Origin: Psammoneis japonica
Lineage: Eukaryota
DNA length: 64,000 bases
NCBI GenBank assembly: GCA_008632985.1
Contig: QPGO01000027.1
Location: 124,001 to 188,000 of the forward strand
Direction of reading: 5' to 3'
A program made the translations under genes and the position numbers. The notes beneath the pieces were generated by a model. That model was not told where the DNA came from and ran no database searches. It saw only the letters and a list, made by a program, of their open reading frames with translations. Of the stretch, positions 3,397 through 64,000 are shown one piece after another. The first letter of the stretch is position 1. The number at the start of each line of letters is the position of its first letter.

Positions 3397-4319
3397 TTTG
3401 CTTTGCTCTGTCTCTGCTGCACCTGTCCTTTTTTCCTGCTGGACACTGCACAACTCATCCTCCAATCTAACATCCACCAACAACGATGGTGTGCCCCTGT
3501 CACAATCCACTTTGTTGTCCTGGTTGGATGTGTGACAATGACAACAACAACAACAACAAGTGTGCTCTCTAAAGGCATTTTCAAAGGCATCTCCAGTGTT
3601 CTTCTTTCTCCATTTTGGCCTGAACCCTGATGATGACTTTGGGAAGCACACCCCCAGTGCTGCAGGAAGAGAAGCACTGGGAAGAGAGCAGGGAGAGCAG
3701 CTTAGATTTAAACTTGCCAAGGGATGGTCTTTGCATCACATGAGGCAAGCAATGGCACTGATGCTTGGAAAGCCACTGCCATGTGACAGAGACTGGGAAG
3801 ATTCTTTCATCTTCTTCCCTGGCTGTCACCATCACCGCAAAGGAAGACAATGGCCAGAGTTCATCAGCACGCATCCTCAGTGTTCCAAGGGGTTCATTCT
3901 GGCATTGAGTTTGATGACATGTCTTGGTGTCTTCTCCAATTGGAGCAACAGGCTTGCCTGGTGGAAGGTGCATGATGCACAGAGCAATGCCGCTTGAGAA
4001 GCTAAAATGGAGCATGTGGTGGTGTCCCCATGTCCCAGCAAACATTTGCCAAATGCCAAGCCAGATCATCATCATCACCACAAATGCACGTTGGCTTGAC
4101 TTGCTGCCTGCACAACATGCAACCCAAATGCACTCAGTCTGCATTTGTTGAGTGGGATGGCCCAATTGAGGAGGTGTCTTTTCACTCTTGATTTGGGAAG
4201 CTGCAAGCCTTGTCTTGGGCAGCAGCAGTCCCTTGTGTGATTCCTTCACAAACAAGAAGATCCCCAGCTGCACAAGGTGTGGAAATGTGAGGCCCACAGA
4301 TGTGGCAAAGGAGGTGTGC

Positions 4320-5411
4320 AGTTGTCTTAGGATGGCATTGGAGGACTCCAGTGGGTTGCCAGGGACATGCCAACAACCATGGTTGGGGAGCAAATGCCTT
4401 GGCTTGTGTCAATGCAGCACCTTGTCTCTCTGACATGACTGGCTTTGGCCCAGCCAGCCAACCTGCAGAGACAATGGAAATGTCTGTGCAAGGCAACAGT
4501 GCAAGTGCTCCATTGTCTTGGGAAAACATTGGATGACTCCATTGGGTCCTGGAGGATGCAATGACAACAATGGCTGGGAAGCAAAGGCCTGCAGAGACAA
4601 AAAAAACCATCTGTGCAACAGCGCAAGTGCTCAGTTGTCTTGGGATGGCTTTTGCATTGGATGACTCCATTGGGTCCCAGAGGATGAAATGACAACAATG
4701 GTTGGAAAGCAAAGGCCTTGTCTTGTGTCAATGCAGCCCTTTGTCTCTCTGACATGACTGGGTTTGGCCCTGCCACCCCACCTGCAGAGACAAGAAAACC
4801 ATCTGTGCAACAGTGCAAGTGCTCAGTTTTGTCTTGGGATGGCTTTGGTGACTCCATTGGATCCCAGAAAAGCCAACAACAACAATGGCTGGGAAGCAAA
4901 GGCCTTGGCTTGTGTCAATGCAGCCCTTTGTCTCTCAGACATGACTGGGTTTGGGTCCTGCCACCCCAGCTGCAGAGACAAGAAAACCATCTGTGTGCTC
5001 AGTTGTCTTGGGATGGCTTTTGGTGACTCCATTGGATCACAGAGGACACAACAACAACAATGGCTGGGAAGCACAGGCCTTGTCTTGTGTCAGTGCAGCA
5101 CCTTGTCTCTCTGACAGGACTGGGTTTGGCCCAGCTAAAAGAGCCAATTTGCAAGATGGACAAGGGAACCACCTGTGCAACAGTGCAAGTGCTCAGTTGT
5201 CTTGGGATGGCTTTTGGTGACTCCATTGGATCCCAGAGGAGCCAACAACAACAATGGCTGGGAAGAAAAGGCTTCATCTTGTGTCAATGCTGACCTTGTC
5301 TCTCTGACATCATGACTGCTGGGTTTGGCCCAGCCAAGAACCAATTTGCAAGAAAGACAAGGGAGCCATCTGTGTGACAACACAAGCACTCAGTTGTCTT
5401 GAGATGGGCAC
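4320..5411. repeat. Degenerate tandem array of ~130-195 bp units, left part (interrupted by the LTR element)
   Basis: About six recurrences of GACTCCATTGG..CAACAATGGCTGGGAAG..TGTCTCTCTGACATGACTGG..CAGTTGTCTTGGGATGG. Confidence 0.9.
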
Positions 5412-5687
5412 TGACAGGATTTGAACAGGATTTGGATGCGCGCGAAGTATCGCGCGCTGTTTAGTTTACCGCACACAGTTTTGTGTGCTTTAGTTCCGCG
5501 CGTTTGCGCGCGATGTAGTTTGCTTTCGAGCCACAAGGCTCACAAGAATAATAACAGTAGCCCGATTATACCGACCCACACGTCTTTCGGCTCCTGTAAC
5601 GGTCTCTGAGCGGAGACTCATCTGCTATTTAGACAGCAGTAAGGAGTTATTGTTTGAATTCTTGCCATTTGCCTTCAATTTCTGTCA
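5412..5687 (+). repeat. 5' LTR (276 bp)
   Basis: 270/276 identical to 12243-12518; TG...CA ends. Confidence 0.98.
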
Positions 5688-5704
5688 GATTAACAGTCTT
5701 GCTC
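5688..5704 (+). promoter_or_regulatory. Candidate primer-binding site complementary to the anticodon arm of tRNA-Asn(GUU)
   Basis: GATTAACAGTCTTGCTC directly follows the LTR; reverse complement contains GACTGTTAATC; no TGG-type 3'-CCA PBS. Confidence 0.55.
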
Positions 5705-6626
5705 ATTGTCAACCCATTGAGCAACCGCCATCGTCGTCGTTGATTTACCAACGACGCTATTTCAATTCTACGTGGACCTCCGTATATATTCTACATACAT
5801 CGGCAAGTCTACGCGCATCCAATACCAGGGCATCGGCAGGAAGTTAACGTCACCGTCAAGTCTCCTTACCGCTGGATATCTGGATTGATTATACTACCTT
5901 TGATCGCTGAAGACATACATTCAACGGTCATATCCAAGTCTATCCTTGATCCTCATCCCTTGATATACCTATTCATCGGTTAACGGTCAAGAATCCTACA
6001 TATTCAAGGATCTTCGTCGCTGAAGACATATATATATATACATATCTTCACGGCCAAGAACCTGTACACACTCTTCGGACTGCGGTTTTGCCACCACTCT
6101 ACAAGCACACCGAGTCCATTGTACCTGATCTACCCCGGACTACTGGTGCTCTACAGTTCTACTAGGTCCACGAGGACGACTGTGAGAGCAAGCAGCCGTG
6201 ATCACAGCCTGCGTTGGGGCGAGGGTGCTTTCCCGCGTTTGTTCGTTCGTCCACAGCGCCTGACGCCTGCGTCAACTGGCCAGCCTGATCGGGAAATCCA
6301 ACCGACATAAAATAAGAACGGTTCGGGGGTCTTGTCCACCTCCAGTCAGCTCACCTGCAGGGGCTTGCAACCCGCTACTCCGCTCGCAAGCAACCCAAAG
6401 CGCCACTGGCTGCGGGTTCGGACGTGCCGGCACAACTCTACGGACAGGATGGGAAGTTTAGCACTTGACAACGAACGGGATGGCAAAGCCCGGCGACTTC
6501 TGATTTTAAGATAGTTCAAGATTTCAAGTCAAGTCTGTTTCAAGTCAAGTCTGTTCTCACCCGAGTTTCAAGTCTGCCCTCGCTTCCCAATCAGAATTGA
6601 TTGTCCTGACACCACTTTTGTCTGCC

Positions 6627-7975
6627 ATGGTTCTCACTCGTCAGCAACAAATCGATGGTTTCGAGCACGTTGTTGGAACCGTGCTTGCCCAAGGTGCTGG
6701 GAGTCCTCTTCGTTTGGCTTTGGCCCAAGACGGCACGGACTCGTGTCAGGAACTGTTCACGTTCACACCGTCCCAAATCGACTCGCTTGTGTGCGACAAC
6801 GGCACCAATGTGATCCCTTTGCCTCGTGGTTATAAGAACATGTTAGCAGCACTGGTTGGTCTGCACATTGTCAAAGCACACAAAGGTCTTGACGTTGCCA
6901 ACGACTCCTCTTTGTTCACGCATGATGAGTTCCTTGCCTGCCGCCTCAGCCCGGACTGCATGTCCTCTGTGTCCATCGGCAGCTCACCCCTTGCACCTCC
7001 ACATGTCACCAACCCGACCAAGGCACGCGACCCGGTGCGAGACTTCAAGCGAGGCATCAAGCGTGATCCCACCGCTTTCACGGCTCTCAAATCCGGCAAG
7101 CAGTGGCACACTTGGCACACCTCACTTGTGGCACAAGCCCATGCCCAAGACGTCGAGTGCATTCTAGACTCGTCGTACAAACCGACCAGCCCCGAAGACA
7201 AACTGCTCTTTGCTGAACAGCAAAAGTGCATGTTCGCCGTCTTCGAACGCATCCTTCTCACCGACAAGGGCAAGGCTCTCATTCGCGAAAATGTGGGGTC
7301 CTCTGACGCACAGACCGTCTGCCGCTCCTTGTCTGAACACGCGCTTGCCTCCACCCGTGCATCCATCGAGTCCTCCACCCTGCTCACGTGCCTCACCACC
7401 GCACGTCTTGGTGATGGCACTTGGAAAGGTCCGACCCACGGGTTCATCCTTCATTGGCAAGATCAGTTGCGCAAGTGCGAGGCACTCATCCCCGCCAGCG
7501 ACCACTTCTCTGAAGGACAGAAGCGCGTCATGCTCGAGAATGCCGTGCACCCTGTCGAGGAACTCCGTGCTGTCAAGAACCAAGCTGATCAGCATCGTGC
7601 GCAGAGTGGCAAGAGCCTCACATGCGATCAACACTGTGGCTTGCTCCTCTCCGCGGCAGCTCAGTGCGACAGCACGTTTCAACCCAAGACGACACCTCGA
7701 GCTCCCCGACGCGCCATGTGCGCCCACGACGTCCACTCCGAGGAACCGTCCGACGATGTGTTCTACGACATTGACAGTGACGTTGACGTCCTTCAAGCCA
7801 ATGCTGCCTGCACCCGTGGTCCCAGCCTCACCGGTGTCCAATGGAGACGTCTCCCTCCCAACCACCAACGGCTCTGGGATTCGTTGCCCGATTCCTCCAA
7901 GGCGATCATCCTTGAGCACTCTCGCCCGCCTCCCCCAACCCGCGAGCCAGCAACTGCCATGAGTCTGTTACGGCC
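6627..7975 (+). CDS. gag: Copia Gag-like region (real frame probably switches to the pol frame near 7916-7975)
   Basis: ORF 6597-8318, ATG at 6627; FKRGIKRD and VMLENAV motifs typical of diatom copia Gag as I recall them; many Cys at likely Tyr positions. Confidence 0.85.
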
Positions 7976-10900
7976 AACCTTCACGACCAACACCTTGGGA
8001 GTGACGGTGATGTCAACTTGTCCAACACGACTCCTGCTGACTGTGGTGACTCCGCCACACATGTGGACGCCACTTCGGACAATCCCATCCTGGCGCACCT
8101 CACCAAGCGCAAGCCACTGCCACCCGGTGATCTGCAACGTCTGTTGTCTCCTAACCAAGCCCCCAATGCCAGTCGACCGGGGCCATCCGCTGCTTCCTCT
8201 ACCCCGCCAGCTTCTGCAGATAACACAGAACTTAACGGCCGCACTTGCCGCCGCGTTAACAACCACAATGTCATTTGCTCTGCCTCTGCTCATCGCTCCA
8301 CACGCACTGGCGCTCTAGTCGATCGTGGGGCCAACGGCGGCATTTCTGGCGACGACGTTCGCGTCATCGCACGCACCTCTCGCCAAGTCGACGTTCAGGG
8401 CATTGACGATCATCAATTGGTGGACATCCCCATTGTCGCCGCTGGTGCCGTCATTGAGACCCAGCGTGGTCCCGTCATCGCCATCCTCCATCAGCACGCA
8501 CACACGGGAAAGGGCAAGACCATCCATTCCTGCAGCCAGCTCGAATGGCACAAACAGGATGTCAACGATCGCTCTGTCAAGGTGCCCAATGGCTTGCAAC
8601 GCATTGCCACTCCTGATGGCTATGTCATCCCCATTGACATCAAGGCTGGCCTGCCTCATGTTGCCATGCGCCCTTGCACTGACGCCGAATGGGACACCCT
8701 GCCCCATGTCATCCTCACCGGTGATGACACATGGGACCCTTCCGTCCTCGATCACTCTGTCACTGACGACGACCAGTGGTGCGACGCGATCTCTGACCCA
8801 CAGGACGATCCCACTGCCAACCCATTTGACGAATGCGGCAACTGCCGTCACCGTGTCGTTGTCAACGAGACCATCTTGTCCGCTTCCTTGTCTGACGATC
8901 ACGCGTCCGCCCTCGATGATCACCTCATTCCGAACGACGACGTGTTCTACGAGTGTCATCTGCATGCGAGTGACCCCACGGGCGTTGACGTTCCACCTCC
9001 GGAGCGCACTGTGAAGCCCAAGGACCCCCCCTTCGAGTCTCTTCGGCCTTGCTTTGGCTTCCTGCCTGCCGATGCGGTCCGTCGTACTTTTGACTGCACC
9101 ACGCAGTGCGCCCGCATGCCCGCCGGCACACACCTTCGCAAGGCCTGCAAATCACCCAACCCCGCCCTTAATGTGCACCGCCGCAATGAGCCTGTCGCCA
9201 CTGACACCATTTGTGCCGACACCCCAGCCGTCGACTCTGGTTGCACCAGCGCCCAACTGTTTGTTGGCACCGAGTCTACCGTCACTGACGTCTGCGGCAC
9301 TAAGACGGACAAAGAGTTTGTCAACACACTCGAGGATCAGATCCATGAACGTGGTGCACCATCCAAACTCATTAGCGACCGTGCTCAAGTTGAGATCAGC
9401 AACAAGGTGCTCGGGATCCTGCGCGCCCTCTTCATCTCCAGCTGGCAAAGTGAGCCTCACCAGCAACACCAAAACTTTGCCGAACGTCGACACCAGACCG
9501 TGAAGCGCATGGCGAACACTGTCATGGACCGTTTTGGTTCGCCCGCCCACACATGGCTCCTGGCGCTCATGTGCGTGTGCTTCACACTCAACCACACAGC
9601 GTCCCCACGTCTCCACTGGCGCACGCCCCTCGAGACTCTCACTGGATCCACCCCGGACATCAGCCCATTGCTTCGCTTTCACTGGTGGGAACCAGTGTGC
9701 TTCCACCTCGATGACTCCGATTGGCCGTCCGAATCCCGTGAGTTGCGTGGACGCTTTGTTGGCATTGCTGAGCACGTCGGTCACCAGATGACCTTCAAGA
9801 TCCTCTCTGACGAGACTCAAAAGATCCTCTGCCGGTCCAACGTTCGCTCCGCTGCCCCCGATCCTGCCGTTCGAAACCTGCGTCTTGATCCTCCTGATGG
9901 GGAGCCACCTGAACCCATCATCAAATCTCGCCATGACGACAACCCCGTCGATTCTACTGATGGGGAGATCAGGACACCCAAGATGCCAGTTTTCGATCCG
10001 CAAGACATCATTGGACGTACCTTCCTCATGCAGCCACAAGAGGATGGACAACGCCACAGAGCTCGCATCGTCAAGGCCGTCGAAGACCACGAATGGAAAG
10101 TGAACGGCAATCCCGAGCTCACTAAGTTCGTCTGCTCTGTCAACAATGACGAATACGAGGAAGTCCTTGCTTGCAATGACATCATGAATCACATTGAGCA
10201 AGAAGACGAAGACACTGCCATTTGGAAATTTCGACGCATCGCATCACACGAAGGACCTCTGAAGCCTCACGACCCAACCTGGAAAGGCTCAAGCTGCAAC
10301 ATCATGCTTGAATGGGAAAGTGGGGAGATCACGTCCGAGCCTCTTGCCATCATCGCCAAGGACGACCCCGTCACCTGTGCCATCTATGCACGAGAGAACG
10401 GACTCCTCGACACGGATGGCTGGAAGCGGTTCCGCACTATCGCGAGGCGCCAAAAGAAGCTATTTCACATGGCCAACCAAGCCAAGCTTCGCTCCTTCCG
10501 CACTGCACCTCGCTACAAGTACGGATACGAAGTTCCCCGGAACTACAAACACGCCATGTCACTGGACGAACGCAACGGCAACCGCAAGTGGGGAGACGCA
10601 ACTAATCTCGAGATGGACCAACTCGACGAATACGAAGTCTTCCATGACTGCGGGCCCTTCAAGTCTTCCACTCCTCCTGCGGGACACAAGAAGATCCGAG
10701 TGCACCTGGTGTTCGACGTGAAACACGACGGTCGCCACAAGGCACGACTCGTAGCCGACGGGCACCTCACGGATGTACCTGTTGACAGTGTTTGCTCCGG
10801 AGCAGTCTCCCTCCGTGGCCTTCGGCTGATGATTTTCCTGGCCGAACTCAACGAGCTGGAGACATGGGCCACCGACATTGGCAATGCCTGCCTTGAAGCC

Positions 10901-12295
10901 ACCACCAAGGAGAAGCTTTACATTGTAGCTGGACCCGAATTTGGCAAACTCGAGGGACACATCCTTGTCATCCACAAGGCACTGTATGGACTTCGCAGCT
11001 CCGGTCTCCGCTGGCACGAGCGCTTCGCCGACTGCCTGCGAGCTGAAGGCTTCTTCCCCTGCCGCACCGAACCCGACATTTGGATGCGCAGGAACGGCGA
11101 CCACTATGAATGCACTGGCGTTTATGTGGATGACCTCGCCATTGCCATGAAGGACCCTCAATCTTTCATCGATACTCTCACGGAAAAGTGCAAGTTCAAG
11201 CTCAAGGGTACGGGACCCATTGAGTTCCATCTGGGTTGCGACTTTTCCCGGGACCCCGACGGAACCTTGTGCCTGTCTCCGCGCAAGTGCATCGAGCGCA
11301 TGGTCGACAGCTACGCCCGATTGTTTGGGGAGAAACCTGCCACCAACGCCCTGTCACCTCTAGAGAAGGGTGACCACCCCGAACTGGACACTTCCGAACT
11401 ACTGGGACCCGATGGCATTCACAAGTTCCAGTCTCTTGTTGGTTCACTCCAATGGGCAGTGTCCCTTGGTCGAATTGACATTGCCACGGCTGTCATGTCA
11501 CTCTCTAGCTTCCGAGCTGCGCCCCGTCAAGGCCACTTGGATCGTGCCAAACGCGTCTGTGGGTGCCTCTCCAAGATGCGACATGGTGCTCTCCGCGTTC
11601 GTACGGAAGAGCCCGACCATTCGGATCTCCCTGCTCCGGCCTATGAATGGATGCATTCCGTGTATGGTGAAGCAGAAGAGATGATCCCGAAGGACGCTCC
11701 ACCGCCCCTTGGCAAGTTCGTCACTACCACCCACTGCGTCGATGCAAACTTGCACCATTGCATGCTCACCGGACGCTCTGTCATGGGAATGCTCCACTTC
11801 CTCAACAAATTCCCGGCTGATTGGTTCTCCAAGAAACAAGCCACCGTGGAGACTGCAACCTACGGATCTGAATTTGTTGCCGCAAGGAATTGTGTCGAGC
11901 AGATTGTCGACCTGCGCATCACCCTGCGCTACCTTGGCGTCCCGATCCGTGATGTTAGTCACATGTTCGGTGACAACAAGTCGGTTGTAGACAGTGCCAC
12001 CATCCCGCACTCCAAGTTACACAAGCGACACACCGCACTGTCGTTCCACCGTGTGCGTGAGGCAATTGCCTCTGGTTACCTTGAGTTCCACTTCATCGAG
12101 GGCTCCCGCAATCCTGCTGACATTCTCAGCAAGCATTGGGGTTGCTCCCAAATCTGGGACCTTCTCCGCCCTCTCATGTTCTGGAACTTCATCCCATCCG
12201 AAGTCGAATCTGTTTCTGTGGCTCCTCAAGCAAACTGGGGAGTGACAGGATTTGAACAGGATTTGGATGCGCGCGAAGTATCGCGCGCTGTTTAG
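7916..12295 (+). CDS. pol: Copia Pol: protease, integrase, reverse transcriptase, RNase H (probably inactivated)
   Basis: LVDRGANGG (protease), ISDRAQVE and SEPHQQHQNFAERR (integrase), HKARLVADG, KALYGL, YVDD (RT), GDNKSV and NPADILSK (RNase H). Confidence 0.95.
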   Translation, partial: ALSPASPNPRASNCHESVTANLHDQHLGSDGDVNLSNTTPADCGDSATHVDATSDNPILAHLTKRKPLPPGDLQRLLSPNQAPNASRPGPSAASSTPPASADNTELNGRTCRRVNNHNVICSASAHRSTRTGALVDRGANGGISGDDVRVIARTSRQVDVQGIDDHQLVDIPIVAAGAVIETQRGPVIAILHQHAHTGKGKTIHSCSQLEWHKQDVNDRSVKVPNGLQRIATPDGYVIPIDIKAGLPHVAMRPCTDAEWDTLPHVILTGDDTWDPSVLDHSVTDDDQWCDAISDPQDDPTANPFDECGNCRHRVVVNETILSASLSDDHASALDDHLIPNDDVFYECHLHASDPTGVDVPPPERTVKPKDPPFESLRPCFGFLPADAVRRTFDCTTQCARMPAGTHLRKACKSPNPALNVHRRNEPVATDTICADTPAVDSGCTSAQLFVGTESTVTDVCGTKTDKEFVNTLEDQIHERGAPSKLISDRAQVEISNKVLGILRALFISSWQSEPHQQHQNFAERRHQTVKRMANTVMDRFGSPAHTWLLALMCVCFTLNHTASPRLHWRTPLETLTGSTPDISPLLRFHWWEPVCFHLDDSDWPSESRELRGRFVGIAEHVGHQMTFKILSDETQKILCRSNVRSAAPDPAVRNLRLDPPDGEPPEPIIKSRHDDNPVDSTDGEIRTPKMPVFDPQDIIGRTFLMQPQEDGQRHRARIVKAVEDHEWKVNGNPELTKFVCSVNNDEYEEVLACNDIMNHIEQEDEDTAIWKFRRIASHEGPLKPHDPTWKGSSCNIMLEWESGEITSEPLAIIAKDDPVTCAIYARENGLLDTDGWKRFRTIARRQKKLFHMANQAKLRSFRTAPRYKYGYEVPRNYKHAMSLDERNGNRKWGDATNLEMDQLDEYEVFHDCGPFKSSTPPAGHKKIRVHLVFDVKHDGRHKARLVADGHLTDVPVDSVCSGAVSLRGLRLMIFLAELNELETWATDIGNACLEATTKEKLYIVAGPEFGKLEGHILVIHKALYGLRSSGLRWHERFADCLRAEGFFPCRTEPDIWMRRNGDHYECTGVYVDDLAIAMKDPQSFIDTLTEKCKFKLKGTGPIEFHLGCDFSRDPDGTLCLSPRKCIERMVDSYARLFGEKPATNALSPLEKGDHPELDTSELLGPDGIHKFQSLVGSLQWAVSLGRIDIATAVMSLSSFRAAPRQGHLDRAKRVCGCLSKMRHGALRVRTEEPDHSDLPAPAYEWMHSVYGEAEEMIPKDAPPPLGKFVTTTHCVDANLHHCMLTGRSVMGMLHFLNKFPADWFSKKQATVETATYGSEFVAARNCVEQIVDLRITLRYLGVPIRDVSHMFGDNKSVVDSATIPHSKLHKRHTALSFHRVREAIASGYLEFHFIEGSRNPADILSKHWGCSQIWDLLRPLMFWNFIPSEVESVSVAPQANWGVTGFEQDLDAREVSRAV
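12232..12242 (+). promoter_or_regulatory. Short polypurine tract upstream of the 3' LTR
   Basis: AAACTGGGGAG abuts the TG of the 3' LTR. Confidence 0.6.
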
Positions 12296-12518
12296 TTTGC
12301 CGCACACAGTTTTGTGTGCTTTAGTTCCGCGCGTTTGCGCGCGATGTAGTTTGCTTTCGAGCCACAAGGCTCACAAGAATAACAACAGCAGCCCGATTAT
12401 ACCGACCCACACGTCTTTCGGCTCCTGCAACGGTCTCTGAGCGGAGACTCATCTGCCATTTAGACAGCAGTAAGGAGTCATTGTTTGAATTCTTGCCATT
12501 TGCCTTCAATTTCTGTCA
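12243..12518 (+). repeat. 3' LTR (276 bp)
   Basis: Matches the 5' LTR except six TA versus TG/CA sites. Confidence 0.98.
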
Positions 12519-12770
12519 GGCACAAGAGACTTCATTGGGTCCCTGAGGAGGCAAGAACAACAATGGCTGGGAAGGAAAAGCCTGGTCTTGGGCCAACACA
12601 GCTCCTTTTCTTCTGTCTGATGTGATTGGCTTGCTTTGGCCCAGCCACCTCACCTGCAGAGACAAGGGAGCTTTCTGTGCCATGTGACAGTGCAAGTGCC
12701 CAGTTGTCTTTGGATGGCCTTTTGGGTGCCTTCATTGTGTCTCAGGGGAGCCAACAACAACCAGGGCAAA
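12519..12770. repeat. Continuation of the degenerate tandem array after the LTR insertion
   Basis: GACTTCATTGGGTCCC..CAACAATGGCTGGGAAG..CACCTGCAGAGACAAG..CAGTTGTCTTTGGATGG resumes the unit broken at 5411. Confidence 0.88.
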
Positions 12771-27468: not shown

Positions 27469-27579
27469 AGTTGAACAGAGATTTTCTGTTAAAAACAATC
27501 ATGTAAGTATTATTATATATTAACATAAAATATATACATTGTTAATCGCTGGCCGCCACCAAATTTTCAAAATCTAAAA
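27469..27579 (+). repeat. ~110-bp direct repeat, TA/CG-intact copy
   Basis: AGTTGAACAGAGATTTT...GCTGGCCGCCACCAAATTTTCAAAATCTAAAA shared with 32069-32172. Confidence 0.85.
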
Positions 27580-27669
27580 CTTGAAACTGTGGCGCGACGA
27601 CTCACCCGCCAAGAGTGGACATGCCATACATCACATTATATACATGCGAGGCCTCCAAAGCCAAGTCAA

Positions 27670-30600
27670 GTGCCACTTATGTATCCTCGCAGACTCCGGA
27701 AGTCATGTTGCAACAAGAAGTGTCGTTGCAGCAAATGACGCAACAAGTGCACGTGAGATCCGGCGGGGCGAGACAGCCCGCCAGAATTTCGCCGACTGGA
27801 GCACCTTCACGCTCGCAAAAGTCGTTCAAATCTCCAGAGAGGCCCGTCATTGCAAGCCACAAGAAGTCTTAACACGAGAACACGGAGTGACAGGTGAGAA
27901 TGGGCAATGACGAGAATGAGTCGGGATCACGAAGCAGTGAGTCCTGCACTCACCCAGTGAAGGAATGAGAGCCAAGCTGTCAGGGACTGCACCAGTCAGA
28001 GGGTTGTCATGCAAGCAGAGTTCTGCGTTTGAACAAAAGGATTCCCGTTGTGAGTTGATGGACGTCCAATCTACCAATCCACAACAAGGAACTTCAGGAT
28101 AAAAGCACTTACGATGTAAGCTGGAACATTTTCCAAGGTCCCGGGGTGTGGTTCCTGACAGGCGATTTGAAAACAAGCCAAGTTTTCTCAGCTCAGAATG
28201 TTTCCAATGGACGACGGCATTGTACCGGTCAGCTGGTTCCCCGCAAGTTCTACCCACTGTAGTGCTGCGGATGGCGTTGTTGAAAAGAAACTCTCCAGAT
28301 TTCCTGAGAGACGATTGGCGATTGCGTAAAACCCAAATGACGTGCCTCGGTTTGCGGAAAAGTCTGGAATGGTTGAATTGAGACAACAATTGAACCCAAC
28401 ATCAAGTCCTTTTAACAAAGGAAGATCTGCAATGGCCTGTGGGATGCTTCCACTGAAACTGTTGTGCGACATGTCAAGTTCCGCAAGCTGGACAAAATTG
28501 CCAATTTCTGTGGGCAGTGTTCCATGAAAATCATTCTTCTCCATGTGCAAGCATTTGAGATTATTCAGAAGACCAATCTCGGTTGGCAGGCTTCCAGAAA
28601 ACTTGTTGTCGCTGATGTTCAGCATCGTGAGATCAATCAACAGACCTAACTCAGATGGAATCGAGCCTGTTGTTTCGTTTCCGAACAACGTCAAATGCTG
28701 GATCTGCGTGAATCGTCCAATTACTTCGGGTGCAGAACCAGAAAGACTGTTTGCAGCTAGTCTCAGCAGCTGAAGAGAGGGCGGAGCAGAACCGAAAAAG
28801 CTCTCAAGATGTCCCGAAAGCTCATTTCCGTGGAGCCACAAGTGAATAAATGATCTTGGTTTCCCAGAAAGTTGGGCAAAGAACCGGTCAAGGAATTGTC
28901 ATTAAGGTGCAGAACCCGAAGGAAAGGCAGATTCGCCAGCGCTTGAGGGATTGTCCCTTGTAGATGATTCTGGCGCAGAGACATCATCGTCACATTTGAC
29001 AGCTTTCCAAATTCGGTCGGAACATCTCCTGCAAGACGATTGCCGCTCAAAAACATCTCCTCGAGCCTCGCACTCCCGATTTCGCTAGGTGTCGTCCCCG
29101 TGAAATCGTTGAATCGAGCGTCGAGCCATCTGAGCTCGGTCAATTTACCAATGTCACTTGGTGTTGCCGAATTCACAATGTTTGAATGAAGATCAAGACA
29201 TTGCAAATTCGTGAAGTCGCCGACATGACTAGGGAGACTGCCTGCAAGGGCATTGTCGAACAACGTCAGAGTGGTTAGAGAATGCGGCGTGGCTTTGAAG
29301 AAATCAATCAAGTTTCCTGATGGCCCACATTTCCGTCAGCCTTGAAAACTTGCAGGCGTTCGAGGTTTGAATCAAAGATTGGCAGAGATCCCGTGAACTT
29401 GTTGTTGGAAACCTCCAACCGAACCAAGGCAGCCGGAGCAAAAGCTGGGGGCGCATCAAGTCGGCCAAAAAGTTGGTTGTCTGCCAAATGCACGGTCTGG
29501 AGATTTGGGGACGTGAAAAGCGGTGGCAATGCATTGGTCAATGTGTTTCCGGTTAAGCCCAATTCTTCAAGGTTCACTGTTTCAAAAAGCTCAGAAGGCA
29601 GTTTCCCGTTCAATCGACAGTCCATGCAACCGAAGGACCGGAGTCTTGAAAGGTTCCCAATGTTGGCAGAGATGGTTCCACCAATGTTGTTTCTGCCCAG
29701 CCACAGCAGCTCGAGGCTTGGCAGTGAGAATGTGGAATCTGGGACAGTCCCCTCCAGGTAGTTCGAACAAGCATCGAAGAGTGACAAGTGGGACAGGGCG
29801 CCAATGGAGGATGTGATTGAGCCTTCGAGAGAATTGCAGCTCACGTTTGTCATTTCAAGCATGGACAAGTGACCGATCTCGTCCGGAAGCAATCCCGTCA
29901 AATTGTTTGAACCTGCAAAGAGGACAACCGTGATGTGGAAAGGCTTGCCAGGCATTCGTCATTTTGCAGCTCCAAGTGACAGAGCCCTTGCACATTGCAT
30001 TACTTGCCAAGTGCAACCTTCGATGCGAAGCCTTGGCTGTCACAAAAGATGCCAGAATCTGTGCCGTCATTCCACTGGCACATGCTGGACTCGGACAGGA
30101 AAGAGAACTGATCACGCCAATTATCTCCGACGGAAATAAAGTGCAACAACGCAAAAATGTGATGCTGTTGGATCCCTGTTTCCGGATCATTGTCGGGGTC
30201 GACAAGTGCAGAGTCATTGTGTGCTAACCACGTGGCAGCTTCGCACTGAGGGGATGAAGAATCCAGAAGAAGATCCGCTCCTGAAATGGGTGACAGCACA
30301 CGGACGAATTTGTCAGGGACAGCAGGCTCCGGAACTGGCCCATCGTCCTTCTGAAGACTAAAGACGACAATCAACACGACCCCGACAATGACCAGAATAA
30401 ATGAGGCAAGAATCATCATGAATTTTCTGTTCTTGAATGAACAGAACTTCTCTGGCGGGACAATGTCTGCCACCAGAGTGTCTTTCAACATGTTCTTTTT
30501 TGTCTCTTCGACAACATCACTCTCACTCCGAACCACTTTGCTGGCATTAACAATCACCGTTTCTGGTGAATCATCATCATCTTCAGAACTTGGTGTGGTT

Positions 30601-31187
30601 GCATTGTCCACAATGACGGGGTCTCCAGCTTTGGCATCAACGTCAGTGTTGCCGGACCCTTGAACAAAATGGGCCCCTGGCTCTGAAGTGTGTTCGTTGA
30701 CAGCACGCACCGCTGTGGTTTCAACGGCAGTTGATGGGTTCGTAGATGGTGCATCTCTTGGCAGTGCAGACTTGGGGACCGCTTGTTCCCTTCGCTCTTT
30801 GGTTCTTCTGTGACAATCCTTGACCTGTTCATCAATTGTCGGTGGAAGAAGCTTCTCGTTCAAGCCGCGACTTGTCTTCTTTTTCATCTTGTGCCGTCTT
30901 TCGTCGCATGTTGATGTCAAAAGTGTCATCGCCCCTGACCTTCTCATTCCTCTAGCTGTCTCTGTTGCATCAGATTTCTTTTCCGGGAATGTTTCTTCTT
31001 CTTGGGGTGCGCATTTCGTTTCAGGAAACTCTTCCGCAAAGTTGTGCCCTCTGAATGCCGTGGCACCCACTTCGTTCGACTTGACTGAAGCCATGCCATG
31101 TGAAGTCTCTGGCGTGCTGTGCCATTTTGGCATGGGTGGGGGCTGCAGTGGTTTAAGGTCCTCCCTGTGCGGTGACTGTTTCTTCAT
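27670..31187 (-). pseudogene. TM-anchored LRR receptor-like protein, frameshifted and TpA-depleted
   Basis: Low-complexity N-terminus, TM helix, LRR cap (C.W..GIFC), many L..N.L.G.IP repeats; frameshifts near 29310, 28845 and 28200; His/Cys at Tyr positions. Confidence 0.85.
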
Positions 31188-31552
31188 CCTCGTAGCAGCA
31201 ATCTTGTTCGCACACGTTGCTGAGATCGCAGGAAAACGCAGCACAGCCACAACAAGCTTTCGACTTTTGCCTGAGAAGAATGCAAATTTTCTTGTGCGAG
31301 GGTTTTTACCTGCCTCTCTCTCTCTTTCTCTCTCTCTTTCTCTGTTGATGAAAGAAATGGGATGAGCGATCCTGTTGTAAAAAAGATTGGGTTCGGATTC
31401 ATGAATGAACTTGCTTCACTTCCGCTGTCACTTCTGCATTTTTTTGGAAGCAGGTTCTGACCAACTCGACTCAAGCAATGCGGGAGTGACCTGGATGCCT
31501 TTAACCACCTGTGGCACTCCAGGCCAATCGTCAGGTCAATCGCCCTCTGTCA

Positions 31553-31558
31553 CTCTCT

Positions 31559-31597
<39 letters not shown>

Positions 31598-31623
31598 TTT
31601 CTCTCTCTCTCTCTCTCTCTCTC
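31553..31623. repeat. (CT)n microsatellite (others at 31313-31342 and 39879-39909)
   Basis: Directly visible. Confidence 0.95.
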
Positions 31624-32068
31624 TGCCAGTGTCTGACGTGCTCTCTTCCAGGATTTGACAAACAACTGATCGAGGCAAAACTCATCAAAGTCACCCTCCA
31701 GCAAAAAACCAAAACGGAGCAGCTTCAGGCACCTGATCACATGCTGGATTGTTTTGGGGCGGCAGTCAAAGGGATTTTTGGTGCTGTGATCCATGTCAAA
31801 GAACGTGTCCTTCCTGCAAGGAAAAGCACTTGGTGGGAGCGGTTTTTGTCCTTTTCTTCTTGGGTGCGGGGGCTGCCTCCTGAGCGGCGTTTTGTTTCTC
31901 ATGGGCAGCCACCTGATTGGAACTTTGCTGCTTGTCAGCATTGCATCCATGGGCAGTGGCTGGTCCATGAAATCTTTTGCTTCCACTGGCTGTCGCCCCA
32001 TTGGATGGTGAGCTCTCTTGTCTTTTCCTGTGTTGCACACCAACGAACAAACAACATTGAGCTGGGGC

Positions 32069-32172
32069 AGTTGAACAGAGATTTTGTGCAAAAGTGCATC
32101 AATGAAAGTGTGTTGATGTGAAATGTGTTCATTGTCAATTGCTGGCCACCACCAAATTTTCAAAATCTAAAA
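32069..32172 (+). repeat. ~110-bp direct repeat, converted copy
   Basis: Aligns to 27469-27579 with TA->TG/CA and CG->TG/CA substitutions. Confidence 0.85.
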
Positions 32173-32399
32173 TTGAAGAAATCAAACAAGTGTGCCACCT
32201 GTGGCATGATTTGCCTGAAATGCTTGTGGAAAAGCACAGCATTCCTGAATCATTTTCACGTGCTTTTAGATCTTCTGGCAGAAGCAAGTCATCACGCAGC
32301 TTTTTTCACAAAAAGTTGTCTCGCTTGCAAACAGTCCATGTTGTGCAAGGAGCAAAGATCGTTCACCATGACTGTTCTTCTTGGTGAGTGCTTTGTTGC

Positions 32400-33174
32400 A
32401 TGGAAGGTGCTGCAATGTTTGGTGTCCTTGACGGTGATGCGCCACACAAAGCTCGACCTTGTTCCAGAGCTGAGTGATGGACATGCCAGTGGCTGTGTCA
32501 ATCTGATCATTGTCAATGTGAAGAAGGTAAAAATGAGCAAGGCCAATGCCAAACTGAAGCTTGGAAACTTCATTGGGGGGGCCGTCCATCCCAAGATTGA
32601 AAAGACCATTTCCAAGGCGATTGTCAAGGCTTTTCTGTCTTTCCTTCAAATGGGCACAAAATCTTTCCCCTTGCAGGATTTCATTGTTGATGTGGACTTG
32701 GGTGGAGAAATGGGCGCTGAACGCTGTGCAAAGAACATCAAGTGTGACCACAAAGGCATCCAATTTCAAGCGCACAGCAACTGGATCCCTGATGTTGAAG
32801 TCTGGTGGTCAGACAATTGGATCGTTCCAAGTCGTTTCAAGTTTGAGAGTCATGGGACAAAAAGGAACACCTCTGAATCCCCGCAGGTTGGGGAGTGTTT
32901 CATCTCTTGGCACAATGTGAACAAGTCACTGGAAGGATGTCTCAACAGCATCAACAGAAACGGTGACCACACTGTCGAAGATCTCAAGTTCTTCCACCCC
33001 GAGGACGATGGTGGTTCAAGCAACACAAAGATCAAGGTGTTTGCCATGATCGACTCACAAAAGCTTCATTTGGCGGTGCAACTGGATGATGGACACATGA
33101 CTGGAAAAGATTGGCGCAGACCGCGCGGCGCGCCATCTTTTCGTCGCCTTTTTCGAGGACAACAGACAACATAG
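32400..33174 (+). pseudogene. Protein-like ORF relic of unknown family
   Basis: Part of the 349-aa ORF 32125-33174 with globular-looking composition but no Tyr, in TpA-depleted DNA. Confidence 0.35.
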
Positions 33175-33230
33175 CGTTGAGCGTTGTTGATGGTTGACGC
33201 ATGTCTTTCGCTATCTGCGCTCGTTGAACC

Positions 33231-39559: not shown

Positions 39560-39877
39560 TTGTGGTTGGTTCAATCAAATCAATCAACGCAATAAAAAAC
39601 CGCAATGTGATGGATGCCACGGTCTGTCTGCTGCTCGCTGTCGGGACTCAATCGCCGCGCAAGTCGATCGACACATTGGTGCCCTCTCTGCAACATTGCT
39701 CTCGACTCTGTCTTCTCTTGTGGCTGATGCACTCTCAGTTTGACTCTCTGGTAGAAGAAATGGAGTAATTTATGAGATCCCCAGACTTGTGAGCTCCAGC
39801 CAGAGAGCAGCAAAACACAGTGCGGGGTGTGTGCAGAGCACACAATCTCACTCAGCAGGCTCTTCCTTGCTGCTGCT

Positions 39878-39912
<35 letters not shown>

Positions 39913-40720
39913 CTGCACATCAAGAGAGTGTGCATGGCAATGTTGATGAAAGAAGAGAGTGGGTGCTGTTGCAGTTTGTTCTGACTCTTGCAGCATTGCA
40001 GCAGCTGCCACCAACAACTTCGCGCTCTTCAAAGAAAGCTGAAGCCAAGATGCCTTTGCCCAGCCATGCAGCGAGAATGATGTTGTTGGCGGGCTTCCAT
40101 GCTCTGGCAACTCTCCAGCAAAAAACAACTGCTGTTGGTGGTCTGTTGTTGCACATCTTGTGCATCTCAGGGGCCGTGCCACACATCAGCTCCTGTGCTG
40201 CGAGTGCGCAGGCTGCGCACATTGTGGCACGCTGGGGGCAAAGTCAGCCCAGCAGCAGACATTTCAGCTGTGTGGTGTTTGTGCCCATTCCAACTGATGG
40301 TGTGCAATAATGCAGAGAACAGCCTGAGAGTTTTCACACCATGGCTGTTCAACATTTGGAGGGGTGGCCACATCTCATGGCACAAGAACAAGGTGTTGCT
40401 GGCACCACCCTCTCTCTGCGGGAGCTGGGTGATCTCTTCCAAGCAAGTGGAGGAGCAAGGCCAGCCACCAAGAGCAATCCAAGTGCACAGCAGCTGCAGC
40501 ACTGTGGTGCATTGCCATTTTGTGTCTCATGGGAAGATGCAGAACCAAACCCTGGCGAGCAGGGCGCAGCAACTCACAAGCCAGGTCCTGCCTGCAACAG
40601 CTGTCTGTCTGTCTGTCAAGCATCTCGCACCTCACAAAGCTGTCCGTACGTCGCACGTCCGAAGCATTCAACGGTTGCTTCGCAAACATTTTGTCGTGAT
40701 CCATCTGGCAGCTGACGTCA
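39560..40720. other. Short TpA-depleted island between normal genes, probably a TE/repeat remnant
   Basis: Composition switch, (CT)n tract, nearly Tyr-free ORFs. Confidence 0.8.
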
Positions 40721-41258
40721 TGTGTACGTCAGTGACTGGTACAACTCTACGGTGAAACTCCGTGAGGCCTTTTCAATCACGAAATGTGCGGGCTCGCGGA
40801 AGCAGAATCACAAATTGATTGCAATTGCGCACCCTCTTCTTTTCAAAAGTACAACTCAAAGCTCAAGAGAAATCGTTGATTGCGGTGTTGTACTCGTTGG
40901 ATCGTCGCTTGAATTTTCAGAGCAAGAGAGACCTTTTCTTTGGCAGATTGCTCGTGCGTTTTCCTTGTGACGCCAATCCTGTCGTCGATTCCCGCCACGA
41001 CTTGACAGTTCTTGCGAAAAGAACCCGCGACCAGAGATTCCTATTTCTCTACGTGAATCTTACCTACGATTGGAATCTTGCGTGAGAGGAATCTTGCGAA
41101 TCTGACGTGTCGAACCTTCGACTGTGTTCTCGCACCAAGTCATTTGCCACCAACGCAGATTGATTCGAGACTTGAGAACACCAGAGCACATTACATTTTG
41201 CAAGAGATAGACGTACCCAACAAGAAGCAGAGCAAGTACATATATAAATATCGCACAC

Positions 41259-59174: not shown

Positions 59175-61474
59175 CTAAACTTCCCCACGTAGCACACCAG
59201 ATTCATCGTCGTAATCATTACGGCGGGAGAAGCTGACACGTCTGTTGTCTTGAACAGATCTTTGCCATCTCTCAACGTTGGTGAGCGGGGCACGCCTGTC
59301 ATTTCTACTACTCGTCTCGGGACGATGCTTTGGCTTGCGGCTGCTTTCCACCAAGTTGTCAACATCAACAGGAATTGCACTCTTGATGCTCCCGTCCACC
59401 AGACTGTCAGTATCCACTGGACCCGAGACACGACGACGATCATTTCTAGAACGGTTGTTACTCTTTTCGAAGTTTTGTGACTCCAGGTCGTACGGGACAG
59501 GATAGCCACCACGTGGGTTGCTATTGCTTCGTTGGCCCTTCCTTGCACTACCCCCGTCTGTAGGGTTCGAGACCACACATAAATCCTTCCCGACAAGGGA
59601 AGATAAAGAAGGTTTTTTGTTCATCGTAGAAGGAAGTCTACGCTGTGACGGGCTTGCTGCAGAGAGAAAATCGCCTCCAGTGGTAGTGCTGCAGGTAGTC
59701 ATTGCCTCGACAAACTGCGGGTCTTCGCTGAGCCATACGGGCTCTCTGACGCCAGCACCTTCACCACTGTTGTCAGAAGCAGTCGACATATCGTCGTCAT
59801 CCAGATCGTCGACATCGACAACATCGTGCCCCTCTTCCAGATAGGCAGCATTCCAAGAATCAACGACAGTATCTTCAATCTCTGGAATCGTTTTCGGTCT
59901 CTGGTAGTTTGGTAAATAGATAAACATCGCTCGGAGCAAGGCGAAGAATCTTGTAAGGAGCACAATAAGTGCGTAGATTGGATAGGTGACAATGCACAAA
60001 AAAGACAATCGAAGATCCTTGCGACGCCAATAAGCCACAGTGTTCCACAAGAAGAGGACCAACATAGCCATAGCCAAGTAAAGACCAAAGCCAATGTAAA
60101 ATTCAAGAATACCAGCCGACAGGATAATCACGGGGAGCCTCAACCAGTCTGCAAAGATCGAGTAAATTGTGTAGAACTGTGTCAACTTCATTGTCAAGGT
60201 GCCCCATATGGAGCTGTGTGCTGTGAAGAAAAACACCTTGACATATTGCCAAAAGTAGGCGTGGAGTGCCATGTCCCAACTTCTGACCCTCTGCGTCCAA
60301 AAGTTTGGCATCTCACCAAGTATCGTGTGAGGAGTTTCGGTATAAATCACCACCTCTGGCTTCATCTTCAGGTCGTAGCCATTTCTCATTGCCCAGAATC
60401 CGAGCTTAGCATCCTCGGCGTAAAACACTGTGTCGTGGTCGCGAAGCGCCTTTTTCAATGCTCCTCGTTCCCACATGGACGCCGCTCCGTGAGGGTACTG
60501 CACCGTTCCAGACTTGTGCTGCATCAGCTTGTTGTAGCCCGTCAGTTGATACTCGAGTGATTGCCACTCGACAAAGAGGGAATAGCGGCGTTCAGGATGG
60601 CACGCTCGGATCGGGTATACCACGCCGACCGTGTTTCCCTCAATGAGATCAATCCCCATATCCAACTCCTCTGGTAGAATCACATCATCGTCCAGCACGA
60701 GAATGTACTTGTATTTCTTACACGCCATGACGCCCGCATACTGTAAAGGAAGAAAAACGAAAGCGCGAAGGCATTCGGTGAGCAGGAATCTTGGAAAACG
60801 GGTCAGTCACGGATCAGTGCCGCGAGCAGTTTTCCCACCAATCTCAGAGACGCATGCCGACAGTTCCAAATCAAGATGTTGCTTACCTGTGCTAGCGTCT
60901 TGTTCCCAAAGCCGTTCCAGATGTAGTTGGACTTGGGGCTACACTTGGCCAAGACCTCGCGACTGTCATCAGTGGGTTCTTTGCTGTTGCCGTTGTCGAC
61001 AATGTAAATCTGCTGTGGCTTGACGTGGTGCAGACAAGCCTCGACGGTGTTTGGGATAATGTCTCGAGAATTATGACAAGCAATCACGATAGCAAGGTCC
61101 TTGTTCTTTCTGCGACGCTGTCTTGCAAGGTCCACCTTGACCATCTTGCGCTTTCCGTGTACCAATTTGGGTCTTTGGTGAACTTGTTTGGGAGGAACTG
61201 GGTAGACGCCGTTTGTAAGGATCGAAAGGAAAACCATAAAGGGCTCCACGAGAAAGATCACGATACCAAGGGCGCCATAATCCGCCCTTAGGATGCGCAC
61301 CACATATCCCCACCAGTCAAAGTAAATTTGGGTCACCACGAGAGCAGCAGCAATCGCAGCATAAACGGAATAGTAGATGACCTTACGAGGCCCCCAGTTC
61401 TTACAAAATATTTCAGACGGGTCCAGAATACTCTGGATCGCCTTGCAGTTTATAGCAAACGCTTCACAAAGCAT
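59175..61474 (-). CDS. Processive GT2 glycosyltransferase (chitin/hyaluronan-synthase-like fold), intron about 60887-60742
   Basis: IACHNS, IVDNG, VLDDD, AED, QRVRSW, flanking TM helices. Confidence 0.88.
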
Positions 61475-61869
61475 GGTGAGTAAAAATTGTTGTGTATAAA
61501 GAAATTGTGGGAGGTGCTTCCAGCCGGGTTCTGTTGCAACTCAGGTGGGATTCAATGAAAGACTCGTGTACGTGTGGCCACGTATCGCGTTTTCGACTTT
61601 GACCTCAATTTTCTGTGACCTGTTGATTCGTGGATGTGATTTTGGGGTTCTCTCTCAATGATAGTAAGACATTCACACACAAAAATCCCAGTCGTGAGTT
61701 TAATTATATTTAAATCGATGAAAATCTTGCATTGGCATGAAGCCGCTTAGGCAAAATTTCAAAATTGTAGACTATCGTCAAAATAGAACAAAAATAGCGG
61801 GAAGATTGCTACTCCGAGCTGTTTCCTTGAAAACAACTCTTCGGTCATTTATAATATATGAAGCACGAG

Positions 61870-64000
61870 CCACAAGCACACACCAATGAAGTGAATTGCA
61901 TTGGAAGATTGTTTTCAGGATCCCCCCATCGTGCATGTGTGGATGGCCTGATCACTGTCTGATTTGGCGATGCTTCTCCAGTCCGATCCACCGGTTGAAA
62001 GGATCTCAACAAAGATTGCTGCAAAGAAGTCATCACCCCATTCATTAAAAAGGAGCTTGAAGTGGCCGTCTGACGCATGCTTTCATTGTCAAGAATAAAA
62101 TGTCAGTGAAGGCAGTGTGTCTTGCTTTTGATTTGGCAACATGTTCTCCAGCTCCAGCGACAAAAGATGGCGCCACAGACAAATGTGAAAGGCTTTCAAT
62201 TTCCAAGCAATTCTCTCTCCTCTTGAGCCATCAAGCTCCATTTTCTTTGTGCAGCCAGGTGGAAGATGCTGATGGTTGCACACCAGGCAGATGGCACCAA
62301 TTTTTTGGCCTTTCCAACACAGCCAACCAGAACCCTGTGGCTCCCAAAACCCAAAACGCCCCAGAAAGATGATTTGATTCTCTTGAACTTGATGCTGAAT
62401 GATGCCAACATTGTGTTCATGATCTGCTCTGTGCCCTCTTCCTTTGCAAGCTGTTCTCTGTTTGGTTTCTTGACAGAAGCTGTTGCTCATGATGAGTGTG
62501 GGATGATTGAGTGAAAAGCTCATGCAGCATTCTCACATTTGCAATTTACATTTTTAAGACTTGATGTGTTTGGCCTGTGGCTCTTTTGTTGCTTTGTCCA
62601 GAGCCAGTTTGGTCATGCCACAGACTTGTTTTGCCAACTCAAAGCCAGCTCATGCCAAGAGTTTGGTTGGCGAGACATTGCGCACCACATGGACAGCATC
62701 TTTGTGCTTTGTTGGGCTTTGGAACATTGTTGCATCACCTCTGCCTGTCATGACTTTTTTTCACAAAGCAACAGGAAGGAGACATGAGTCATGATGGGTT
62801 GAGAAGGTCATCCCAGAATGAACCTAAAATTCTGGGGCCAGCATGATTGGCAAATTCAGTGCAAAGTGATGAACCTTGATGGACAAATGCGCGAGCATCC
62901 ACATTGTGAATTTCTTGCAGATCATGACACATGTTGTGCTTTGCACTGATTTGGAAATCATTGTGACAAATGGGGCTCAAATCATTGGTGCAAACTTCTT
63001 GCACATTGTGACTTTTGGCAAGGGACGCTGCAAAGGGCCCCACTCCCACCATGCAACCCACCACAACAGTGCCAGTGGATTCTTCTTGCCTCATGATTTG
63101 ACCCACCCATTGAGCATGCTTGTGAACAAGACAAGAGCTCCAGCACACATTGCCAAAATCCAAATCAAAAACACACCCCTCCTTCTCACTTTGCAGTGCC
63201 AGACTCCAGTGGTGCCTTGAATGTCCTGCCAACACCTCCACTTCAAATGTCTGACACATTGTGCTCATGTGGTGTGCACCTTGTTTGCTGTTCTTTTGAC
63301 TTTGGTGCTCTTGTCCAACAAGCCATTGCCAATGTGCTCAAAACACAAGAGTTGTTGTCTGAAATTGATGTGAGCCACATGAGCCACCACCCCTTTAAAT
63401 GCCCACAGGATTTCGAACATGCTGGTCAGCAAGAGGCATTTCAACACCTGTCTGTTCTGCAAATGAACCCTTGTGCCTCAATGTCATTGCATGCATGGTT
63501 GGTTCTGCCTCCATGTCATCTTGCAAAAACTTTGCAATGACATCAATGTCCTTTGTGTTGGTCAATTGTTTGAGTGACAGCATGTGCTTGCTCTTGTCCT
63601 CATGAGCAAAGACATTTTTTGTCTCGTGGTGCAATGCAACAACTTGGATGAAAGGTTGCAACACAGCTTGGCTGTGCAACATGACAGAGAACAATTGATG
63701 CCTTCTTGTGACAATGTTGCTTCTCAAACTCTCCAAAGGAAATTCTGAGATGGGGTGGCAGCAGGAAGGATTGGCAGGAACTCAAACCTGGCAAGGAGTT
63801 GTGCTGCTGTTGTCAACACAACATGATGAATCCATTGTCTTCTGTGGTGCTGGCAGGAGACAAACATGAGATGAAAATGTCCTGAGAGTTGTTTGAGTGT
63901 TGAGCATTCAAAATTGAGTGCTGTGTGTGCATGCAAGTCTGCTCAGCACCAACTGTTTTGCTTTGGCTCCCACTCATGCAACATTTTTTTTTCATTTTGC
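61870..64000. other. TpA- and CpG-depleted domain running off the window
   Basis: Composition switch near 61870; nearly Tyr-free ORFs. Confidence 0.9.
62790..63470 (-). pseudogene. TRM5: tRNA (guanine37-N1)-methyltransferase TRM5 relic
   Basis: VAHVAHINF..LLDK..NKV, FEVEVLAG, EGCVFDLDFGNVCWSSCL, GVGPFA, VCTNDLSP (cf. VYWNSRL, VYANDLNP). Confidence 0.85.

Follow-up and report, generated by a model that had tools for sequence, protein, structure and literature searches.

Two virus-derived regions of Bigelowiella natans are hypermutated by TpA→TpG/CpA transitions, about 1000 times faster than the background (Mettrop et al., bioRxiv 10.64898/2026.01.13.699255). According to the preprint, the hypermutated DNA consists of integrated NCLDV and virophage sequences, the larger region being single-copy, and the TpA-poor coding sequences include Pfam families of likely host origin, which make up 24 of the enriched ones (10.64898/2026.01.13.699255). 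An ADAT2-like adenine deaminase is proposed there as the cause, strictly as a hypothesis (10.64898/2026.01.13.699255). The terms "CpG" and "diatom" have no occurrence in the main text of the preprint (10.64898/2026.01.13.699255). No report of TpA hypermutation in diatoms was found in the literature searched, where B. natans is the only such system in print.

The RIP of ascomycetes converts C:G into T:A pairs and creates TpA. Both sequences of a pair are mutated when they share more than about 80% identity over more than 400 bp (PMC2621366), and the process can leak into single-copy neighbours (PMC3105345). In diatoms, a DNMT5-dependent CG methylation of transposons is described for Phaeodactylum, and DNMT4 enzymes related to RID, of unknown function, are present (PMC9998398).

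The gene treated here, TRM5, encodes the tRNA m1G37 methyltransferase. The yeast enzyme is dual-localised, and null or near-null TRM5 causes a severe growth defect (PMC10275265), in agreement with the near-essential role ascribed to the gene by the first-pass annotation. The window, i.e., the whole stretch of 64,000 nucleotides analysed, ends in DNA almost devoid of TA and CG that contains a decayed copy of this gene (Table 1).

Table 1. Positions of the TRM5 relic, its lesions and the surrounding features in the window
Feature	Position	Strand	Basis
TRM5 (tRNA m1G37 methyltransferase) pseudogene, aligned core, full-length	62,560-63,814	-	frameshift-aware profile alignment, HMM segments, tblastn
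Possible N-terminal remnant of the relic	63815-63907	-	in-frame ATGs at 63,835 and 63,907, by translation
Frameshift 1, junction of N-terminal and GHxAH segments	63450-63470	-	HMM tiling and profile alignment
Frameshift 2, junction of GHxAH segment and methyltransferase core	63268-63275	-	tblastn, HMM and profile alignment
Frameshift 3, about six codons lost after DARAFVHQ	62870-62880	-	tblastn, HMM and profile alignment
Apparent TAG on the alignment path	62815-62832	-	conserved LDAFR reads LGSFW one frame over
Invariant Tyr of VYWNSR changed to Cys (VCWSS)	63143-63145	-	column Tyr in 117/117, codon TGC
Cys of VCTND	62990-62992	-	column His 61, Tyr 43 of 117 references; Cys outside the five commonest residues
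TA/CG-depleted block around the relic, running off the window end	61,860-64,000	.	dinucleotide counts
Intact glycosyltransferase-2 (GT2) gene, neighbour and control	59175-61540	-	PF13632/PF13641
Copia-type LTR element	5,405-12,519		LTRs 5,405-5,688 / 12,236-12,519, RVT_2 in ORF 7,916-12,295
Differences between run X1 and the window	62,362, 62,522, 63,207	.	X1 TA, CG, TA; window CA at all three

A full-length TRM5 pseudogene

In a frameshift-aware profile alignment the relic spans columns 2-435 of 437 with a score of 182.7 bits; the controls reach 18.5 (reversed sequence), 16.1 (plus strand) and 18.9 (another depleted block). An HMM of 117 TRM5 proteins tiles it in four segments with alternating frames (model positions 8-123, 121-184, 185-321 and 307-445), that is, from position 8 to 445 of 450, and the tblastn matches extend to 62,542. 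The relic placed by the first-pass annotation at 62790..63470 is real, and this interval covers only about half of it.

The stop-free stretch 62,792-63,337 on the minus strand matches PF02475 with 28.2 bits (cut-off 28, E 2.2e-6), as well as 446 of 1.84 billion protein representatives at E<=1e-3 (best 4e-18). Three of the ten top clusters carry names, and all three are tRNA (guanine37-N1)-methyltransferase. The PF02475 family also includes TYW2; the collinear match, established against TRM5 proteins, continues outside the shared domain in the N-terminal GHxAHxNxR and the C-terminal VRxVxP segments. The domain order and motifs of eukaryotic TRM5/TRMT5 (PF02475 with PF25133) are present over the whole length. 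In contrast to these proteins, the relic is noncoding, with frameshifts, stops and altered invariant residues in the SAM-binding and NLP regions. In the PDB, a sequence search with the relic gave MJ1557 (E 0.14) and three antibody chains as the sole matches. The core may be preceded by an N-terminal remnant, in which the stretch between the two ATGs resembles an organelle-targeting extension.

A quick maximum-likelihood tree of 64 rows places the relic within a 47-row clade (SH-aLRT 97) that includes all seven named diatom proteins and leaves out Triparma. Its branch is very long (3.5) and has no resolved sister. The relic thus nests among diatom TRM5 proteins and shows no viral or other foreign origin up to the window end at 64,000, which supports its reading as a copy of a host-type (diatom clade) housekeeping gene carrying the TA/CG signature. 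Diatom TRM5 coding regions are stop-free in one frame in all seven tested, so a retrocopy and a DNA duplicate are indistinguishable for the relic.

Dinucleotide loss and its trace in the protein

The relic retains 2 TA and 7 CG in 1,255 nt, with rho(TA) 0.02 and rho(CG) 0.10. Intact TRM5 matches (17 of 80 metagenome loci, from the top 20) have 44-143 TA each, with rho(TA) 0.44-0.83 and rho(CG) 0.51-1.36. The loss is visible at the protein level. None of the 405 aligned codons encodes Tyr, against a mean of 11.1; Arg falls to 7 (25.3 expected), while His rises to 34 (12.8 expected) and Cys to 21 (8.8 expected). At the 11 columns with at least 40% Tyr the relic reads His (5), Cys (2), Phe (2), Asp (1) and Lys (1). 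The change from Tyr to His is therefore commoner than that from Tyr to Cys, and seven of these columns, together with the repeat pairs described below, follow the TpA→TpG/CpA direction. Among ten conserved Arg columns, six have become Cys, His or Gln by CG→TG/CA, three are kept and one is Ser.

The first-pass annotation had named two motifs as Tyr to Cys changes. That in VCWSS is a true one, and the next conserved Arg after the Tyr of VYWNSR is also Cys in the relic (CG→TG). The second, in VCTND, is less certain: as its column is occupied by His or Tyr in relatives, a Tyr to Cys change is probable, and the Ala to Thr replacement directly after it fits CG→CA. A separate observation, post hoc and on small numbers, is that conserved Asn reads Ser (AAY→AGY) in 3 of 10 columns between 62,947 and 63,139.

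Frameshifts and ordinary decay

The reading frame of the relic is not intact and its conserved catalytic residues are not preserved. At least three frameshifts interrupt it, the firm ones at about 63,455, 63,271 and 62,875. Two of the three lie inside the interval annotated previously and one at its edge, which bears out the frameshifts reported there. The apparent TAG listed in Table 1 is probably a fourth one, as judged by eye; one of the two surviving TA of the relic falls in the same short segment. Five further frameshifts called by the alignment (63,725, 63,681, 63,634, 62,794 and 62,712) lie in poorly conserved stretches and are distrusted.

Residues are altered at 49 of the 121 columns conserved at 90% or more: 17 changes are explained by TA or CG loss (6 TA, 11 CG) and 32 need other changes, with 72 columns remaining the same. 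For the 99 well-aligned invariant columns the corresponding numbers are 61 the same, 13 TA/CG-explained and 25 other (0.62/0.13/0.25). Decay was simulated on seven intact TRM5 genes with 30 replicates each. Under neutral decay, covered up to 0.4 changes per site, about 14 Tyr remain and TA/CG-type changes stay within 4%, and neutral change alone keeps or raises TA; consequently, ordinary decay cannot give the signature of the relic. With a full TA/CG sweep alone, about four stops appear, no Tyr is left and about 17% of the invariant residues are altered, which is enough to kill the gene. The sweep combined with 0.10-0.15 neutral changes per site yields splits from 0.64/0.16/0.19 to 0.58/0.16/0.26, close to the observed one. 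The relic would then be old, since its state fits a full TA/CG sweep plus about 10-15% ordinary substitutions per site. On this basis, the parent gene is estimated to be 78-81% identical to the relic in DNA (before indels) and 60-66% in protein.

Boundaries of the depleted block

The window contains two kinds of DNA. The gene-rich kind has rho(TA) of about 0.5-0.6, as found in four window genes, and rho(CG) of about 1. The other forms blocks almost without TA or CG, which include 0.4-5.2 kb, 12.4-20 kb and 62-64 kb. In the last of these, between 61,871 and 64,000, there are 6 TA against 156 expected and 16 CG against 111 expected, confirming the depleted block noted previously. Its TA front lies at 61,858-61,908, and the CG front follows deeper inside the block, at 61,993-62,217. 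The depletion reaches 350-700 nt beyond the 3' end of the relic and, on the other side, 90 nt or more beyond its most upstream ATG. The GT2 neighbour has rho(TA) 0.62 and rho(CG) 0.92 over 59,178-60,740. The hypermutation is thus confined to the block and its neighbour is spared. Between the GT2 gene and the 3' end of the relic, about 700 nt of depleted DNA (61,860-62,545) contain no recognisable ORF in six frames.

Several other features of the depleted DNA were recorded. Survival of TA depends on the flanking bases: in the depleted blocks pooled over 12,273 nt, TTAA accounts for 21 of the 48 survivors and is kept in full (retention 1.17), GTAC, ATAT and ATAC have a retention of 0, and GCGC is the best-kept CG context. 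In the region 27,600-33,200, where an LRR transmembrane-type gene lies (LRR Pfam matches at 28,191-28,898), TA loss is strong and CG loss only partial; the ORF 30,000-31,187 is nearly Tyr-free, and the region looks like a host gene at an earlier stage of attack. A small isolated TA/CG-poor intergenic island at 39,600-40,800 has two long ORFs with no Pfam match. Finally, a decayed tandem repeat of about 190 nt, devoid of TA and CG, is split by the LTR element into 4,194-5,407 and 12,528-12,767.

Differences between sequence copies

The two LTRs of the copia-type element are 97% identical. They differ at eight sites, and at six of these a TA has been lost from the right LTR alone, the one that abuts a depleted block. 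A short AT-rich repeat has 14 TA at 27,469-27,585 and 1 TA in its copy at 32,069-32,177, and in a tandem pair at 413/566 two of the three differing sites are TA. These one-sided pairs, together with the depletion beyond the relic ORF, point to targeting by position. In the interior of the copia-type element TA is much reduced and CG is normal; TA loss precedes CG loss there. The idea that the base 5' of TA sets the edited strand did not hold: this base is a purine in 7 of 13 pair differences, whereas a pyrimidine stands 3' of the edited A in 9 of 13.

A further claim of the first-pass annotation was that, in contrast to RIP, the process leaves one copy alone. An essential gene can say little about such sparing because, whatever the mechanism, lineages in which both copies are lost would be removed by selection. 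As an example, the TRM5 locus alone is old and noisy. Stronger support for a contrast with RIP comes from the neutral pairs of the window and from the single-copy target in B. natans; the destruction of one TRM5 copy and the sparing of another is plausible and in keeping with those pairs.

In run X1, a single contig of 18,879 nt spans the interval 61,000-64,000 without interruption; it differs from the window at three sites, has no gaps and continues for about 8 kb past the window end. Run X1 may be the source of the assembly or derive from the same sample; with this reservation, the relic is real DNA and not the assembly artefact considered earlier. All three differences lie in the depleted block and oppose TA or CG to CA (chance 0.01-0.10), while the zero differences in the 870-nt flank are unremarkable (0.36). 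Both X1 TA alleles form CTAG, which is possible at only 20 of 495 CA/TG sites (a post hoc count); this context is erased slowly (retention 0.195). The codon at 63,207 is the conserved Trp in the window and a stop in X1, whose TA may have arisen recently and not been removed so far. The three sites fit a turnover at these dinucleotides, without proving current activity.

Whereabouts of a presumed working gene

A working TRM5 very likely exists elsewhere in the genome, as judged from the importance of the gene. To that extent the earlier expectation of an intact copy stands; none was found in protein or read-contig searches, both of which are weak. At 80% identity or more, the contigs of three read runs contain no second TRM5, a weak result given that the parent is expected at 78-81%. 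Apart from X1, a 2,097-nt contig of run X2 covers only 61,000-61,440, the missing cover elsewhere being uninformative, and run X3 gives no match. Of 293 proteins collected by protein searches and a HMMER scan, 269 align over at least 150 of 225 columns, and the best has 44% identity against the 60-66% expected for the parent; one of the search profiles was shaped mostly by its first row and gave relic-like proteins no advantage. The main ORF of the relic, compared with proteins of 320-2000 aa, has no match among 127 candidates, which is again weak. Exact look-ups in the protein collection found none of ten sequences (eight intact-looking window ORFs, whose ends may differ from called genes, and two relic pieces). 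The proteins of the organism therefore seem absent from the collection, and blanks in protein searches are uninformative. Among the 535 window ORFs of at least 60 aa, only the two of the relic match any of 80 TRM5 loci at E<=1e-4, a weak comparison as these loci are short and distant.

Origin of the relic

The most probable explanation, held with some confidence, is that an old full-length TRM5 duplicate in a silenced domain underwent a position-targeted erasure of TpA and CpG plus ordinary decay. A full-length duplicate of the host gene would have come to lie in a silenced chromosomal domain. Over this domain a regional TpA→TpG/CpA hypermutation (A:T→G:C) of the B. natans kind would have run almost to completion, possibly by the adenine deamination chemistry hypothesised in the preprint. 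A CpG→TpG/CpA decay, probably from cytosine methylation of the presumably methylated and silent domain, would likewise have run almost to completion. The copy would also have drifted by about 10-15% ordinary substitutions and several indels. The domain, and not the pairing of gene copies, would set the target, and a presumed intact parent in ordinary chromatin would be left alone. The expected parent identity of 78-81% lies at or below the pairing limit of about 80% given for RIP (PMC2621366) and TA is still near zero, which counts for targeting by position. Against this explanation, no intact paralogue was seen (in weak searches), the end of the duplicated segment could by itself account for the domain edge, and the Asn to Ser excess of A→G outside TpA is not predicted by the model (post hoc, small numbers).

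As in B. natans, the changes are regional TpA→TpG/CpA transitions; there, too, the target can be single-copy and host-type Pfams occur among the TpA-poor coding sequences described. The present loss is near-complete (rho 0.02-0.04 against 0.45 in the NCLDV region), CpG is also lost, the genome is of diatom type and the target is an identifiable host housekeeping copy. Moreover, the process is read here from sequence, whereas the B. natans report has mutation-accumulation evidence. RIP, including its leakage, resembles the present case in that dinucleotide-specific transitions wreck repeats and neighbouring genes in blocks. However, TpA is removed here and made by RIP, and the neutral repeat pairs of the window are hit on one side, whereas RIP hits both sequences (PMC2621366). 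CpG decay of methylated transposons explains the CG changes, which number 11 among the 17 of TA/CG type at the 121 columns, and CG methylation is a likely basis of the CG loss. It gives no account of the TA loss or the loss of all Tyr codons, and the TA front lies outside the CG front.

The mutator could instead have killed a working TRM5 copy, as the first-pass annotation proposed: a fresh duplicate, or a copy captured by a transposable element, would have been recognised as a duplicate and destroyed with the parent spared. The sufficiency of the simulated sweep to kill the gene, the full length of the copy and the young LTR pair, in which TA changes outrun the others (6 of 8 differences), speak for such a course. 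It is nevertheless unlikely, since 25 of the 38 changes at the 99 well-aligned invariant columns, i.e., two thirds, are not of TA/CG type, at least three frameshifts are present, the depletion extends outside the ORF, and selection would anyway leave one copy of an essential gene. The capture part of the proposal loses ground further, as no terminal repeat of at least 25 nt bounds the relic. The mutator may have killed the copy, or may have reached one that was already dead.

A pairing-dependent process of the RIP kind, hitting both young copies before selection kept one working and the relic decayed on, could draw on the rule of identity and length (PMC2621366), the leakage (PMC3105345) and the RID-related DNMT4 enzymes of diatoms (PMC9998398). 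We consider it very unlikely: the direction is opposite, neutral pairs are hit on one side only and the B. natans target reported is single-copy (10.64898/2026.01.13.699255). Slightly less probable still is that the relic marks the native TRM5 locus, with the working gene relocated or carried by a homologous or homoeologous chromosome that has diverged; at its most extreme, this reading has canonical TRM5 lost and another enzyme covering m1G37. The relic is indeed full-length, may keep an N-terminal extension and adjoins an intact gene. On the other hand, the read contigs contain no second allele or homoeologue of the GT2 stretch at 80% identity or more (a filter that can drop contigs), TRM5 is near-essential in yeast (PMC10275265), and no neighbours are common with the 80 TRM5 loci, in the weak comparison above. 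An assembly or sequencing artefact deserves hardly any credence. The assembly may have been built from the only run that spans the relic, but the contig of this run crosses 61,000-64,000 ungapped with three differences, and a dinucleotide-specific loss with sharp fronts and flank dependence corresponds to no known error mode.

Biological meaning

With the relic, a real, old and full-length TRM5 pseudogene in which TpA and CpG are almost gone, a process known from B. natans is extended to a genome of diatom type and to a copy of a host housekeeping gene. Copies of host housekeeping genes are not exempt from TA/CG erasure, and a conserved enzyme gene makes it possible to gauge, at the level of protein, in which direction and how completely the mutation process has run. 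In such genomes, BUSCO-type genes can have dead look-alikes without Tyr. If the parent TRM5 has normal TA, the pair would be a clean test of a position-guided, one-sided process, with consequences for gene families opposite to those of RIP.

A tentative proposal, which we hold as possible rather than probable, is that an A:T→G:C editing, still active and independent of homology, erases whatever is located in silenced domains. It would remove redundant copies of essential host genes there and spare the copy in open chromatin. If so, a relic that is more than 10% diverged yet almost TA-free, and the TA polymorphisms in CTAG, would reflect a continuous policing after pairing has become impossible. 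Gene duplication would then be allowed and badly placed paralogues would be deleted one-sidedly, unlike in RIP.
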